DNA of 10,894 nucleotides from a virus (taxonomy: Duplodnaviria > Heunggongvirae > Uroviricota > Caudoviricetes). Shown here one piece after another: positions 1 through 10,894 of this stretch (positions within the stretch are counted from its first letter, which is position 1; each line of letters begins with the position of its first letter). The position numbers and the translations under genes were made by a program. Below the pieces are notes generated by a model. That model saw only the letters and a program-made list of their open reading frames with translations. It had not been told where the DNA came from and did not search any database. Where the stretch lies: IMG/VR virus record IMGVR_UViG_2740892526_000019; one strand, given 5' to 3'.

Positions 1-1230
1 ATGAGCAGAGCACTTAACAAACTGAGCGATACACAGCTGAGGAAAATCAACGGCACACCCGCCCAAAAAACAGCCTTTCTTAATGACGGTGGAAACCTGA
101 GCGTCAGGCATTCAACCAGTGGCCTTTTAACCTGGTATTTCACTTACAGGGCCGGAACGGGAAGGGGGGCACCACCGGAACGCATTAAGCTGGGAAATTA
201 TCCTGATCTGAGCCTGAAATCAGCCAGGGAAAAAGCCGCCCAGTGTCGCGCATGGCTGGCAGAGGGGAAAAATCCACGTCATGAGCTTAATTACACCGTA
301 CAGGAAGCGTTAAAGCCGGTAACGGTTGGCGATGCGCTCACCTACTGGCTTGAGTCGTACGCAAAGGAAAACCGCGTGGATTATGCCGCCCTGAAAAAGC
401 GCCTTAATAATCACGTAATACAGCACATTGGTGCTATGCCGCTGGATAAATGCGAGCTACGGCACTGGCTGGCCTGTTTTGACCAGGTGGCAAAGCGAAC
501 GCCTGTTACTGCCGGATTCTTGCTACAGACGTGCAAACAGGCGCTTAAGTTCTGCCGGAGGCGGCGCTATGCAATCAGCAACGTTCTTGATGATATGAGT
601 GTGGCGGACGTTGGGAAAAAACCGGATATAAGCGAGCGTGTCTTAAGCACCAAAGAACTGGGCGAATTATTGCAGGCACTGGACAAAAAAATATTCTCCC
701 CCTACTACATCGCGTTAATCCGCCTCCTGATTGTGTTCGGATGCCGGACGGTAGAACTGAGGTTATCGGAGATCAGCGAGTGGGATTTTACCGAAATGCT
801 CTGGACCGTGCCGAAAGAACACAGCAAAACGAAGGTGGCAATATTCCGGCCCATACCGGAAGCAATACTGCCGTTCGTCACGCAGCTGGTGGAGCAGAAC
901 AGGCACACGGGTTTATTGCTGGGGGAAGTGAAACAGGAAACAAGCGTGTCGCAGTACGGCAGATTAGCGCATAGGAGGCTAAATCACCCTCACTGGTCAC
1001 TACATGACATCCGGCGCACCTTTACAACGATGCTGAACGATTTAGGCGTGGATCCTCACGTCGTGGAGCAGCTTACAGGCCACCAGATGCCAGGAATGCA
1101 GCGAGTTTATAATCATTCCCGTTATCTGGATGCTAAACGCAATGCGCTGGATATGTGGACGGAGCGGTTAGGGATACTGGCGGGAACACATGAAAACGTA
1201 ACCACGCTACCAGTAGCCAGAAGAAAATAA
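1..1230 (+). CDS. int: Tyrosine-type site-specific integrase (phage/P4-like integrase family)
   Basis: 409-aa ORF. N-terminal arm-binding-like region (LSDTQLRKI...DGGNLSV...WYFTYR). C-terminal catalytic signature HDIRRTF (H-x-x-R) and VYNHSRY (catalytic Tyr). ATG sits at window position 1, so the true start could lie upstream. Confidence 0.9.
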   Translation: MSRALNKLSDTQLRKINGTPAQKTAFLNDGGNLSVRHSTSGLLTWYFTYRAGTGRGAPPERIKLGNYPDLSLKSAREKAAQCRAWLAEGKNPRHELNYTVQEALKPVTVGDALTYWLESYAKENRVDYAALKKRLNNHVIQHIGAMPLDKCELRHWLACFDQVAKRTPVTAGFLLQTCKQALKFCRRRRYAISNVLDDMSVADVGKKPDISERVLSTKELGELLQALDKKIFSPYYIALIRLLIVFGCRTVELRLSEISEWDFTEMLWTVPKEHSKTKVAIFRPIPEAILPFVTQLVEQNRHTGLLLGEVKQETSVSQYGRLAHRRLNHPHWSLHDIRRTFTTMLNDLGVDPHVVEQLTGHQMPGMQRVYNHSRYLDAKRNALDMWTERLGILAGTHENVTTLPVARRK

Positions 1231-1296
1231 TTTTTTTCGTGTTTTTTCAGCATGCGCATACTGGATATGCGAACAGATACAACGTGCAGCAATGAG

Positions 1297-1322
1297 CAAC
1301 AATGTGGAACAACCACGAACAA
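1297..1322. promoter_or_regulatory. Three (G/C)AACAA hexamers at 10-bp phasing; candidate protein-binding site
   Basis: CAACAA at 1297, GAACAA at 1307, GAACAA at 1317 on the + strand, with a GTGG/CCAC mini-palindrome between repeats. A near-identical copy in inverted orientation lies at 7555..7580. Confidence 0.35.
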
Positions 1323-1594
1323 GAGGCGAAAAAGCGTACGGATTTATAAGTAGCTGATTTTTAATGTGTTACTGGTTTTTTATACACTAGCGAATCACTC
1401 TTTAAAGAGCGAGAAAAAAGGCATGAAACAATATTTTATGCCTTTGTATTAACATGAATTTAAAAGATTTTATTCTTACTGTTTCATTTTCTGTAAATCA
1501 TACATCCTCAGTATTTGCCATTCATCACTCTAGCGGGAACAATACGACACAATAAGACACCTGATGACTCTTTAAGAAACGAAAGGGGGCAATA

Positions 1595-1783
1595 GTGTTA
1601 AGCACTGATCGGTTTATACGTGAAAAAGAATGCGAAAAACTAACCGGCCTTAGCCGTACGTGTCGCTACCGCCTGGAAAAGGCCGGACAATTCCCATCAC
1701 GTCGTAAACTTGGCGGTCGTTCCGTTGGCTGGTCTTTATCCGAGGTTCTGGCCTGGAAGGATAGCTGCAAGGCAGTTCATTAA
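1595..1783 (+). CDS. alpA: AlpA-family transcriptional regulator / excision activator (small MerR-like HTH)
   Basis: 62-aa ORF with GTG start 5 nt after a strong SD (AAGGGGG, 1583..1589). Motifs TGLSRTCRYRLEKAGQFPSRRKLGGRSVGWSLSEVLAW match the AlpA/prophage CP4-57 regulator family pattern. Confidence 0.8.
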   Translation: MLSTDRFIREKECEKLTGLSRTCRYRLEKAGQFPSRRKLGGRSVGWSLSEVLAWKDSCKAVH

Positions 1784-1928
1784 TCACGCTGGCGGCACGC
1801 AGCCGCCACACATCAATCATCTGAACACAGAGCTATAACCATGAAGATTGAATATACGCCAGAACGTGGGCGGGGATTCGTTCGCCCTGGTGAAACTGAA
1901 AAACAACAAAATTGGGGTTTTTCAGGTA

Positions 1929-1958
1929 TAAAAAAAGCGGCCCCGAAATGGAGCCGCC
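1929..1958 (-). terminator. Rho-independent terminator for the leftward two-ORF unit (possibly bidirectional)
   Basis: Stem GCGGC (1937..1941) / GCCGC (1953..1957). Read on the minus strand it is followed by a T7 run (complement of the A-run at 1929..1936). On the + strand only a weak CTTTCT follows. Confidence 0.5.
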
Positions 1959-8953: not shown

Positions 8954-8963
8954 CAGCATACAG

Positions 8964-8992
8964 AAGGGGCTTAAAAGCCCCTTTAGTGTTTT
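8964..8992 (+). terminator. Partial terminator / attenuator after the capsid gene
   Basis: Stem AAGGGGC (8964..8970), loop TTAAAA, stem GCCCCTT (8977..8983), then TAGTGTTTT. Confidence 0.45.
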
Positions 8993-9007
8993 ATGGGTGA
9001 AAAAATT

Positions 9008-9565
9008 ATGAAGAGTATGGAAATCCGGTCATCGGAAATCACCACCAGCGCCAGCAACACGCTTACAGGCTACGTTGTTCGCTGGGATAACCTTTCAGAG
9101 CTGCTATGGGGGGAGTTTTACGAAAAATTCCAGCGGGGAGCGTTTACTGAATGGCTTGCGGCGGGTAATGACGTTCGCGGCCTGTATGAGCATGACCACA
9201 GCATGTTACTGGGGCGCACCCGTTCCGGCACGCTGAAACTGGAAGAGGACGAAACAGGGTTACGCTTTGAACTGACCCCACCGGATACCAGTACAGGGCG
9301 CGACGTTATCGAACTGGTTAAGCGTGGGGACATCTCGGGGATGAGCTTTGGCTTTCGCTCCCGTAAGGATGTATGGGATACCACAACAGATCCATGCGTG
9401 CGCACCGTGCTGGTGGCGGAACTGTACGAAATTACCGTTACATCGGTACCGGCTTACCCCGATTCCGGCGTGGAGCTGGCCCGCCGTTCCCTGTATGAGC
9501 AGCACCCCGAAAAAATGCCGCGTGCGGATAATCGCCGCTGGTGGGCGGATTTAGCGGGGGTGTGA
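9008..9565 (+). CDS. HK97-family prohead protease
   Basis: ATG 9008 preceded by GGTGA; alternative in-frame ATGs at 8993 and 9017. Motifs GYVVRWD, catalytic-region HDHSMLLG and GMSFGF, and C-terminal EITVTSVPAYP are typical of this protease family. Confidence 0.8.
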   Translation: MKSMEIRSSEITTSASNTLTGYVVRWDNLSELLWGEFYEKFQRGAFTEWLAAGNDVRGLYEHDHSMLLGRTRSGTLKLEEDETGLRFELTPPDTSTGRDVIELVKRGDISGMSFGFRSRKDVWDTTTDPCVRTVLVAELYEITVTSVPAYPDSGVELARRSLYEQHPEKMPRADNRRWWADLAGV

Positions 9566-9566
9566 T

Positions 9567-10778
9567 ATGTGGCCTTTCAGAAGAAAAAAAGAGCAGCGCA
9601 GCATGACGCTTGATGAGTTTATGGCGCTGGCTGGCACATCGAACACGGGGGCGGGTGAGTACGTATCATCGGGGACAGCGGAATCACTGCCCGCCGTCAT
9701 GAACGCCGTGACGGTCATCTCTGAGGCGGTGGCTACCATGCCGTGTTACCTGTACCTGGTACGCAATGAGAAGGGGAAGGAGGCCCGCGAGTGGCTTGAT
9801 TCTCATCCGGTCGATCATATCCTCAACGAGCGCCCGAACGCGTGGCAGACGCCCTATCAGTTTAAGCGAATGATGGTCCGCCACTGCCTGTTAAACGGTA
9901 ATGCTTATGCGGTGATTCAGTGGGGGCGTGATGGTTTTCCGGTGGCTTTGCACCCTTACCCGCCGCAGTCGGTGAACGTGGAGCAGACAGGCGAACACAA
10001 CTGGCGCTATTGCATCACTGACGCCTACACCGGAAACACCCACAACTATTTACCGTGGGAAGTACTTCACCTTCGTTACTCCACGGATGACGGCTTTATG
10101 GGGCGCTCACCTGTAACCATCTGCCGCGAATCGCTGGGGCTTGGGCTGGCCCAACAACGCCACGGCGCGAGCGTGATGCGTGATGGCATGATGGCGGCAG
10201 GGGTTATCACGTCAGGCGAATGGCTGGACGGCGTGAAGGGCAAACAGGCATTAGCCGCACTGGAACGCTACAAAGGGGCCAGAAACGCCGGAAAAACGCC
10301 CATCCTTGAAGGGGGTATGAGCTATCAGCAGCTGGGCATGAGTAATCAGGATGCTGAATGGCTGGCCTCCCGTCGCTTTACCATTGAAGACATCGCCCGA
10401 ATGTTCAACGTCTCGCCGATTTTTTTGCAGGAATACAGCAACAGCACCTACAGCAATTTCAGCGAGGCAAGCCGCGCATTTCTCACCATGACGATGCGCC
10501 CGTGGCTGGCGAACTTTGAGCAGCAGATAAAAAACGCCCTGCTGGTGGCCTCGCCTGTACCTGGTATCCGGTATCAGGTGGAGTTTGACAGCGCGGACCT
10601 GTTACGGGCCACACCTGGCGAACGCTTTGCCACCTATGAGCGCGGCATCAAATCCGGCGTTATGTGCCCGAACGAAGCCCGCGAACGTGAAGGACTGTCA
10701 CCGCGTGATGGTGGTGATGAGTTCAGCCAGGCATGGAAACAGGAAGTAAAAATCAGCGAGGGAGAAAAACCGGAATGA
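9567..10778 (+). CDS. HK97-family portal protein
   Basis: 403-aa ORF with ATG 1 nt after the protease stop and a GGGGGTG SD. Conserved portal-like blocks (HPVDHILNERPN, LLNGNAYAVI, WLASRRFTIEDIARMF, NFSEASRAF, PNEAREREGL). Confidence 0.8.
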   Translation: MWPFRRKKEQRSMTLDEFMALAGTSNTGAGEYVSSGTAESLPAVMNAVTVISEAVATMPCYLYLVRNEKGKEAREWLDSHPVDHILNERPNAWQTPYQFKRMMVRHCLLNGNAYAVIQWGRDGFPVALHPYPPQSVNVEQTGEHNWRYCITDAYTGNTHNYLPWEVLHLRYSTDDGFMGRSPVTICRESLGLGLAQQRHGASVMRDGMMAAGVITSGEWLDGVKGKQALAALERYKGARNAGKTPILEGGMSYQQLGMSNQDAEWLASRRFTIEDIARMFNVSPIFLQEYSNSTYSNFSEASRAFLTMTMRPWLANFEQQIKNALLVASPVPGIRYQVEFDSADLLRATPGERFATYERGIKSGVMCPNEAREREGLSPRDGGDEFSQAWKQEVKISEGEKPE

Positions 10779-10894
10779 ACATAGGGCGACTGCGTGACAG
10801 GATAACGATTCAGACCCTGAAACAGACCAGAGCCATGACGGGCGAAATACTCGAAACGTGGGAGGACGGTCACACACTCTGGGCAAGCGTGAAC
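10775..10894 (+). CDS. Head-tail adaptor / head-tail joining protein, N-terminal 40 codons (truncated by window end)
   Basis: ATG at 10775 overlaps the portal stop (ATGA). N-terminus MNIGRLRDRITIQ resembles the start of phage head-tail joining proteins. Only 40 codons are visible. Confidence 0.5.
   Translation, partial: MNIGRLRDRITIQTLKQTRAMTGEILETWEDGHTLWASVN

Follow-up and report, generated by a model that had tools for sequence, protein, structure and literature searches.

What kind of element combines an integrase, an AlpA-type regulator, a primase and an iteron-bearing origin with HK97-type head genes of its own, while neither a large terminase nor a tail gene is in view? The question is raised by a stretch of 10,894 nucleotides assigned to the Caudoviricetes (IMG/VR record IMGVR_UViG_2740892526_000019), which, taken at its full length, is referred to below as the window. 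A preliminary description made from the sequence alone had proposed a capsid-forming phage-inducible chromosomal island (cf-PICI), that is, a satellite building its own heads and taking its tails from helper phages. Our analysis leaves hardly any doubt that the window corresponds to bases 182–11,075, the left 70%, of EcCIEDL933, the 15,461-bp cf-PICI that occupies the roxA/phoQ site of Escherichia coli O157:H7 and is known in strain Sakai as Sp7.

Identity and boundaries of the element

When the whole window was compared by megablast with 5,426 complete E. coli genomes, 100% identity over 10,894 bp was found to many O157:H7 genomes, identical copies being present in EDL933 (NZ_CP008957.1, 1680329–1691222) and in Sakai (NC_002695.2, 1594891–1605784). 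At least 80% of the window was recovered from 101 of the 5,426 genomes, and some part of it from 1,800. In the Sakai record, the region falls within a feature of 15,461 bp labelled ‘prophage Sp7; untypable’. The Sakai and EDL933 loci (L001 and L002, respectively) were retrieved with 9 kb on each side and differ from each other by three bases; locus position 9001 is window position 1 and coincides with the ATG of the integrase gene. EDL933 is the strain of origin of EcCIEDL933, the 15.4-kb founding member and prototype of the cf-PICIs (Alqurainy et al., 10.1101/2022.09.08.507074), whose published gene set consists of int, alpA, rep, capsid, protease, portal, head–tail connectors, HNH, TerS and TerL (the small and large terminase subunits), without tail genes (10.1101/2022.09.08.507074). 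The assignment to a class with its own heads and helper tails was thus borne out by 100% identity to EcCIEDL933, and nothing in the data contradicts this identity. A megablast search against a phage collection returned three partial matches only, implying that the element has not been deposited there as a phage.

The limits of the element were established with the help of unoccupied roxA/phoQ sites, which were located in some O157:H7 strains by an artificial junction query. Between EDL933 and the empty site of O157:H7 strain F8798 (L003), identity extends on the left through L002 position 8829 and on the right from position 24281, and the two junctions have in common a 10-bp att core, GGACATATTT, with copies at L002 8820–8829 and 24281–24290. 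The element so delimited measures 15,461 bp, which is exactly the Sp7 feature of Sakai, and its att sites are adjoined by the host genes roxA and phoQ. Accordingly, the flanking att duplication foreseen in the preliminary description exists and is confirmed by the empty site. Both att sites lie outside the window, attL being found 172–181 bp upstream of window position 1, and 4.4 kb of the element remain to the right of the window. A search for tRNA and tmRNA genes found none, which indicates that integration does not take place at a tRNA gene.

A 21-bp direct repeat, CGGTGTAGTTAATGGTGTAGT (L002 8954–8974 and 24182–24202), was also considered as the att core and was rejected, since the empty-site comparison puts both of its copies inside the element. 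Just inside each end, and in the same orientation, there is a tandem of two GGTGTAGTTAAT units (L002 8955–8978, i.e. 23–46 bp upstream of window position 1, and 24183–24206), which could be mistaken for the att core. These tandems are likely to represent arm-type sites of the integrase, which has an Arm-DNA-bind_3 domain. Further to the left, the lambda-like prophage Sp6 (espK, espO, an nleB remnant and IS2; L001 1–4143) ends ~4.7 kb upstream of the island, with potB, potA, pepT and roxA in between; a leftward extension of the window would reach these unrelated prophage genes.

To the right of the window, the gene interrupted by its end encodes a head-closure protein of 112 amino acids (aa; L002 19775–20113; Pfam Phage_HCP, 7e-23; phrog_25, Hc1). 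It is followed by genes for a gp6-like adaptor/connector (L002 20110–20406; Phage_connect_1 / Ad1), an HNH endonuclease (L002 20406–20846, outside the window), a 60-aa protein of phrog_3173, a P27-family TerS (L002 21136–21492; Terminase_4), a TerL with ATPase and nuclease domains (L002 21476–23137) and, last before attR, a 93-aa protein of phrog_1561. TerS and TerL lie ~1.2–3.2 kb past the window end. It is correct that the window itself holds no large terminase or tail gene, but this is an effect of where it ends: the element continues for another 4.4 kb, and the large terminase gene falls in that part. The expectation that the element would lack a large terminase proved mistaken, as TerL is encoded just past the window end and cf-PICIs carry their own TerL (PMC10085698). 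The small terminase and HNH genes, by contrast, were anticipated in the flanking DNA and were both found there, whereas extension of the window revealed no tail module downstream. Indeed, when all annotated open reading frames (ORFs) of the element were searched against Pfam, PHROGs or both, no tail, holin or endolysin/lysis gene was found. The terminal ~850 bp that precede attR, beyond which phoQ follows, are free of annotated genes, and no ORF in them exceeds 112 aa.

The interval that separates the gene of the 93-aa protein from attR contains, at L002 23416–23853, ~5–7 degenerate units of ~48 bp, each made up of GGCGCGGTAACTnGyTGATATTTTCG and a short palindrome. This array, which is partly common to a classical phage-inducible chromosomal island (PICI; L007, see below), may possibly constitute a packaging (cos/TerS-binding) site or another cis element.

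Head module and class of the island

Within the window, the head module comprises three complete plus-strand genes. They encode an HK97-fold major capsid protein of 385 aa with an N-terminal delta domain (7796–8953; TIGR01554, 7e-88), an HK97-family prohead serine protease (8993–9565; Pfam Peptidase_S78, 3e-48; TIGR01543, 1e-53) and an HK97-family portal protein (9567–10778; Pfam Phage_portal, 6e-91; TIGR01537, 3e-72). The profile searches that had been suggested for these proteins matched HK97-type families, the scores for TIGR01554, TIGR01543 and TIGR01537 all exceeding the curated cut-offs, and Pfam concurs. The element had also been credited with an adaptor gene of its own; capsid, protease and portal genes are indeed complete, but of the adaptor only a stub is in view, namely the translated first 40 codons of the 112-aa head-closure gene (10775–10894, plus strand), cut by the window end. 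The capsid protein is identical at 385 of 385 residues to chain B of PDB entry 9GYI. This entry belongs to the electron cryomicroscopy study of the EcCIEDL933 capsid, which was found to be a T=4 shell of 47.5 nm with an N-terminally cleaved capsid protein (He et al., 10.1101/2025.02.11.637232), while tail specificity was found to be set by the adaptor and connector proteins (10.1101/2025.02.11.637232).

In the phage collection, capsid proteins more than 58% identical to that of the island occurred only in records of 3.8–16.5 kb or in one 106-kb Klebsiella record, whereas ordinary phages of 37–41 kb reached at most ~40%. Three GenBank ‘phage’ records of 15–16.5 kb encode related capsid proteins (LR881103.1, 16,548 bp, 65%; OR544139.1, 15,321 bp, 58%; PQ793804.1, 16,506 bp, 34%); these are probably cf-PICIs that were deposited as phages.

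Class membership was assessed by the SatelliteFinder criteria (PMC10085698) and by those of He et al. 2025. In the former, the cf-PICI model is defined partly by an own TerL, TerS and HNH (PMC10085698), and the whole element contains 11 of the 11 core components of this model and no forbidden ones. Chromosomal cf-PICIs measure ~10–18 kb between att repeats; here 15,461 bp lie between the GGACATATTT repeats. The left half carries the integrase, the regulator AlpA and the DUF927 replication protein Pri-rep, and is followed by the island's own capsid, protease and portal genes. The two head–tail genes (L002 19775–20113 and 20110–20406) come next, then HNH, TerS and TerL, all three outside the window, and tail and holin/lysis genes are lacking. 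The lesson is that the absence of TerL from a truncated window provides no criterion for a cf-PICI.

Published experiments on EcCIEDL933 agree with this assignment. The helper phages HK106 and HK446 induce the island, which is then transferred at high frequency (10.1101/2022.09.08.507074). An alpA mutant loses both induction and transfer, while mutation of any packaging gene abolishes transfer and leaves replication intact (10.1101/2022.09.08.507074). The small capsids are of island origin and the tail genes of the helper are needed, at no cost to the helper (10.1101/2022.09.08.507074). Moreover, helper capsid mutants still yield island particles, whereas island capsid mutants abolish transfer (10.1101/2022.09.08.507074).

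These data also bear on other possible explanations of the locus. The Sakai annotation calls the region a prophage, and its head and packaging genes belong without exception to the HK97/phage type, so one might think of a decayed HK97-like prophage whose tail, lysis and immunity genes were deleted and which no longer forms a functional unit. Yet all ORFs are intact, and within the att bounds there is no tail module, lysis cassette or CI/Cro-type immunity region that would make the element an HK97-like prophage. In its left half the element has the backbone of a PICI (alpA, DUF4222, Pri-rep, iterons), in common with the classical PICI, and the same ~15-kb tail-less architecture recurs, with diverged sequences, at unrelated att sites (L008 and L009). 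The small capsid, furthermore, fits the genome size of 15.4 kb. Decay is refuted by the transfer and knock-out experiments in the literature, which demonstrate helper-dependent transfer at high frequency in T=4 capsids made by the island, and we regard it as very improbable.

An even smaller probability is attached to a classical PICI whose capsid-like genes would only remodel helper capsids, in the manner of Ccm of the cos Staphylococcus aureus pathogenicity islands or of the capsid-like and decoration-like genes of the EcCICFT073 type. Such a reading would draw on the int–alpA–rep backbone, which is 94–99.5% identical to that of the classical PICI L007 at the same site, and on the capsid-like, decoration-like and TerS-like genes that L007 possesses. 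The island studied here has instead a full set of portal, protease, head closure, adaptor, HNH, TerS and TerL. The portal and the two head–tail proteins, all of them present, are forbidden components of the SatelliteFinder PICI model (PMC10085698), which sets the element apart from classical PICIs of the EcCICFT073 type. The persistence of island particles with helper capsid mutants and the loss of transfer in island capsid mutants likewise speak against remodelling, as does the purified capsid, which consists of the island protein (PDB 9GYI). As for P4-like satellites, from which the element had been distinguished at the outset, no ORF matches the sid, psu or delta families and capsid genes are present, so that the distinction holds.

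Two caveats attach to the identification of the window with EcCIEDL933, a functional cf-PICI. The window represents 70% of the element, without att sites and terminase genes, and the identification leans on extension into public genomes; besides, none of the 17 prophages resident in EDL933 mobilises EcCIEDL933 efficiently (10.1101/2022.09.08.507074).

For EcCIEDL933 as a cf-PICI, the gene content, together with what is known of the classical PICI EcCICFT073, suggests that Int would excise the island at GGACATATTT and that the DUF927 protein would then fire the iteron origin with the aid of the island single-stranded DNA-binding protein (SSB). By analogy with HK97-type packaging, island DNA would be cut and packaged by TerS, TerL and HNH, and the portal vertex would be finished by the head-closure and adaptor proteins. 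The identification places the window within established cf-PICI biology, in which islands produce T=4 heads themselves, pirate nothing but tails, can be released in the form of tail-less capsids and pass from one species to another. As the element has been described in detail before, our main finding is not new. The result is mainly a validation, in that the class had been recognised from 70% of its prototype by a reader without database searches.

Genes and control sites of the left half

Searches with Pfam, NCBIfam and PHROG profiles confirmed the integrase, alpA and primase genes of the preliminary description, and the iteron origin was likewise confirmed by 11 TAACCCGCA iterons. The plus-strand gene at 1–1230 encodes a tyrosine integrase of 409 aa (Pfam Arm-DNA-bind_3, 5e-18; Phage_int_M; Phage_integrase, 1e-16), annotated as an integrase in both Sakai and EDL933, which inserts the island between roxA and phoQ, and alpA (1595–1783, plus strand; Pfam Phage_AlpA, 5e-17; phrog_2790) encodes a helper-induced helix-turn-helix (HTH) protein of the activator/excisionase type. 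The rightward early operon, on the plus strand, begins with a gene for an Icd-like protein (2610–2807; NCBIfam phage_ICD_like, 6e-18; phrog_29966, phrog_1743), followed by three genes for small conserved PICI/phage proteins (2800–2985, phrog_3672, 9e-46; 2985–3176, phrog_1478, 8e-35; 3166–3408, phrog_5796, 8e-53). Next comes a DUF4222 gene (3414–3713; Pfam DUF4222, 2e-23), which is found directly 5′ of the replicase in all related islands and has the same place in L005–L009. The replicase itself, Pri-rep, is a DUF927 primase/helicase of 710 aa with a C-terminal Cch-type HTH (3710–5842, plus strand; Pfam DUF927, 1e-48; HTH_56; phrog_1139, DNA primase, 5e-191). It precedes the replication origin at 5865–6180, where the iterons are found in both orientations and flank AT-rich stretches. 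All 11 copies of this 9-mer fall within 5865–6180, against 0.09 expected by chance for the whole window, and published E. coli PICI origins have the same layout (PMC6092414).

Downstream of the origin, the plus strand encodes a conserved 83-aa protein (6213–6464; phrog_1231, 5.5e-52), the SSB (6461–6871; Pfam SSB, 4e-17), the accessory PerC-family regulator pchE (6882–7154; Pfam PerC, 9e-45; so named in Sakai) and a conserved 74-aa protein (7279–7503; phrog_1957, 7e-42). According to a statement in one paper, PchE has no effect on LEE1 (PMC11773190, citing Porter 2005). The hypothetical genes of the window had been taken for accessory cargo. This does not hold for most of them, which belong to the backbone (Icd-like, DUF4222, SSB and families phrog_3672, phrog_1478, phrog_5796, phrog_1231 and phrog_1957), several of them also occurring in the classical PICI that occupies this site in other strains; most small ORFs are considered backbone because they matched conserved PHROG families, several of which recur in related islands. 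The idea of cargo survives for pchE, the sole recognisable accessory gene.

Two terminator-like hairpins of almost the same sequence, AGCCGGAG(A/C)AATCCGGCT with a T-run behind it, are located at 7160–7177 and 7514–7531 and bracket the 74-aa gene; a third hairpin (8963–8984) lies 3′ of the capsid gene. An Rfam scan of the window gave no significant family, the top match being rnk_pseudo with 26.6 bits against a cut-off of 55 bits (E=0.44). A scan of the window for the sigma-70 consensus returned eight sites against 11.2 in shuffled sequence and hence does not define promoters.

Downstream of alpA lies a region that is described in the cf-PICI papers as variable and of unknown function. The annotation has here, on the plus strand, a hypothetical ORF of 247 aa (1841–2584; ECs_1576 / EDL933_RS32265), for which no Pfam, PHROG or NCBIfam match was found. 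On the minus strand, the same stretch probably contains two unannotated genes, one for a basic protein of 62 aa (2053–2241; phrog_21027, 1.6e-15) and one for a 63-aa Arc-like ribbon-helix-helix (RHH) protein with a TTG start and an AGGTGA Shine-Dalgarno sequence (2284–2475; phrog_228, 5e-7). L005 and L008 each have an annotated minus-strand homologue of the 62-aa protein. The RHH gene scores 5e-4 with Pfam HicB, just under the family cut-off, and its NCBIfam RHH-type matches are weak, as is its similarity to YlcI/YnfO (E=0.002 and a probability of 12.8% in an hhalign alignment with YlcI). In five related islands (L004, L005, L006, L008 and L009), however, the corresponding place is taken by a YlcI/YnfO RHH gene that PGAP puts on the minus strand.

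The choice between the two strands was addressed with a sense-versus-shadow codon log-odds model. Over 2051–2476, the plus frame scores -0.18 and -0.25 per codon, as compared with +0.15 (2053–2241) and +0.25 (2284–2475) for the minus-strand genes, whereas it scores +0.27 over 1841–2050; moreover, the AT skew flips in this region. In a codon-position substitution test of the plus-strand 247-aa ORF versus the minus-strand ORFs, the frames share the wobble position. The minus-strand reading is opposed by the plus frame being open in four diverged loci as well, and by its first 70 codons, which score as coding. From ~2051 onward, the 247-aa ORF is probably a shadow ORF, and a short plus-strand gene may possibly exist at 1841–2050. 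The annotation of the 247-aa ORF, like the Sakai label ‘untypable prophage’, appears to be outdated.

The spacer that separates the RHH gene from the icd-like gene (2476–2609) contains an exact pair of AGGTGACCAC (2476–2485 and 2511–2520), 35 bp apart, one of which overlaps the RHH Shine-Dalgarno sequence. The same spacer harbours a strong minus-strand terminator-like hairpin (2581–2545) with a 15-bp stem and a T-run, which could end an RNA antisense to the 5′ end of the icd-like gene. The spacer region folds with a z-score of -3.3 and matches no Rfam family.

Arrays of TTGTTC with 10-bp phasing are a further feature of the island. A motif and phased-array scan found three copies on the minus strand in the int–alpA spacer (1297–1322), and an exact array of three phased copies is present on the plus strand at the start of the packaging cassette (7555–7580); TTGTTC/TTGTTT arrays with the same phasing are found near attL and attR (L002 8911–8936 and 24140–24165). 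Five in-element matches compare with 0.23 expected in 28.9 kb. At the 7555–7580 array, three diverged cf-PICIs, one of which has a different int and alpA, retain the block TTTTGTAAATTATTTGTTCGTGGTTGTT unchanged, while the other spacer sequence diverges. The array at 1297–1322 may be bound by AlpA or by a recombination-directionality protein, and that at 7555–7580 is a candidate control site for the head operon.

It is tempting to speculate further. The 247-aa stretch would encode two minus-strand genes divergent from the icd-like/replication operon, and the RHH position would be kept in classical PICIs and cf-PICIs as exchangeable alleles (YlcI/YnfO elsewhere); separately, the TTGTTC arrays could act as AlpA/Xis-like sites coupling excision to activation of the head operon. 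Taken as a whole, we consider this scheme rather unlikely to be right. All the same, the RHH gene and the arrays offer inexpensive and testable clues to the silencing and activation of Gram-negative PICIs.

Modularity and relation to known systems

The same roxA/phoQ att site is occupied by a classical PICI in other O157:H7 strains, for example in Vac_07.1 (NZ_CP076241.1) by L007, which shares with the island window positions 1–2307 (99.5%), 2575–2807, 3399–4073 and 6211–7535 (94%), as well as the last small gene. Homology breaks at window position 7535, just after the hairpin at 7514–7531, and the head/packaging cassette is taken to start at 7536 because the backbone shared with L007 ends there. 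As this sequence comparison shows, the cassette is a swappable module, cf-PICI and classical PICI behaving as alternative cassettes on one backbone. Independent, diverged cf-PICIs with the same layout are found at allE/allC (L008) and at gcd/hpt (L009). In these two E. coli islands, the portal gene is followed by a single head–tail connector (L008 16780–17082; L009 13922–14224) and then by HNH, a head-closure gene not being annotated.

Compared with the published EcCIEDL933, the element studied here has the same sequence, gene list, size and capsid protein, and no difference was found. The window as such covers the left 10.9 of 15.46 kb and is without attL, attR, most of the head-closure gene, the connector, HNH, TerS and TerL.

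The classical PICI L007 has the same integrase, alpA and att site, and shares the Icd-like, DUF4222, SSB, PerC and last small genes at 78–99.5%; in both islands, the replicase is followed by the origin. It differs in having a RepA-family helicase instead of the DUF927 replicase, and a short cassette of capsid-like, decoration-like and TerS-like genes that relies on helper capsids, whereas portal, protease, head–tail, HNH, TerS and TerL genes are those of the element studied here.

With HK97-like siphophages, including the helper HK106, the island has in common the HK97-fold capsid protein with a cleaved delta domain, the S78 protease, the HK97-type portal, gp6/gp7-like head–tail proteins and HNH-dependent TerS/TerL packaging. 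It departs from them in the absence of tail, lysis and lysogeny-immunity modules, in its size (15.5 versus ~40 kb) and in its T=4 capsid, as opposed to T=7 for the phage. P4-like satellites, finally, resemble the island in their integrase, AlpA/Vis-type regulator, primase-type replicase and dependence on a helper. They are, however, without capsid, portal and terminase genes and remodel P2 capsids by means of Sid, Psu and Delta, whereas EcCIEDL933 has capsid genes of its own.

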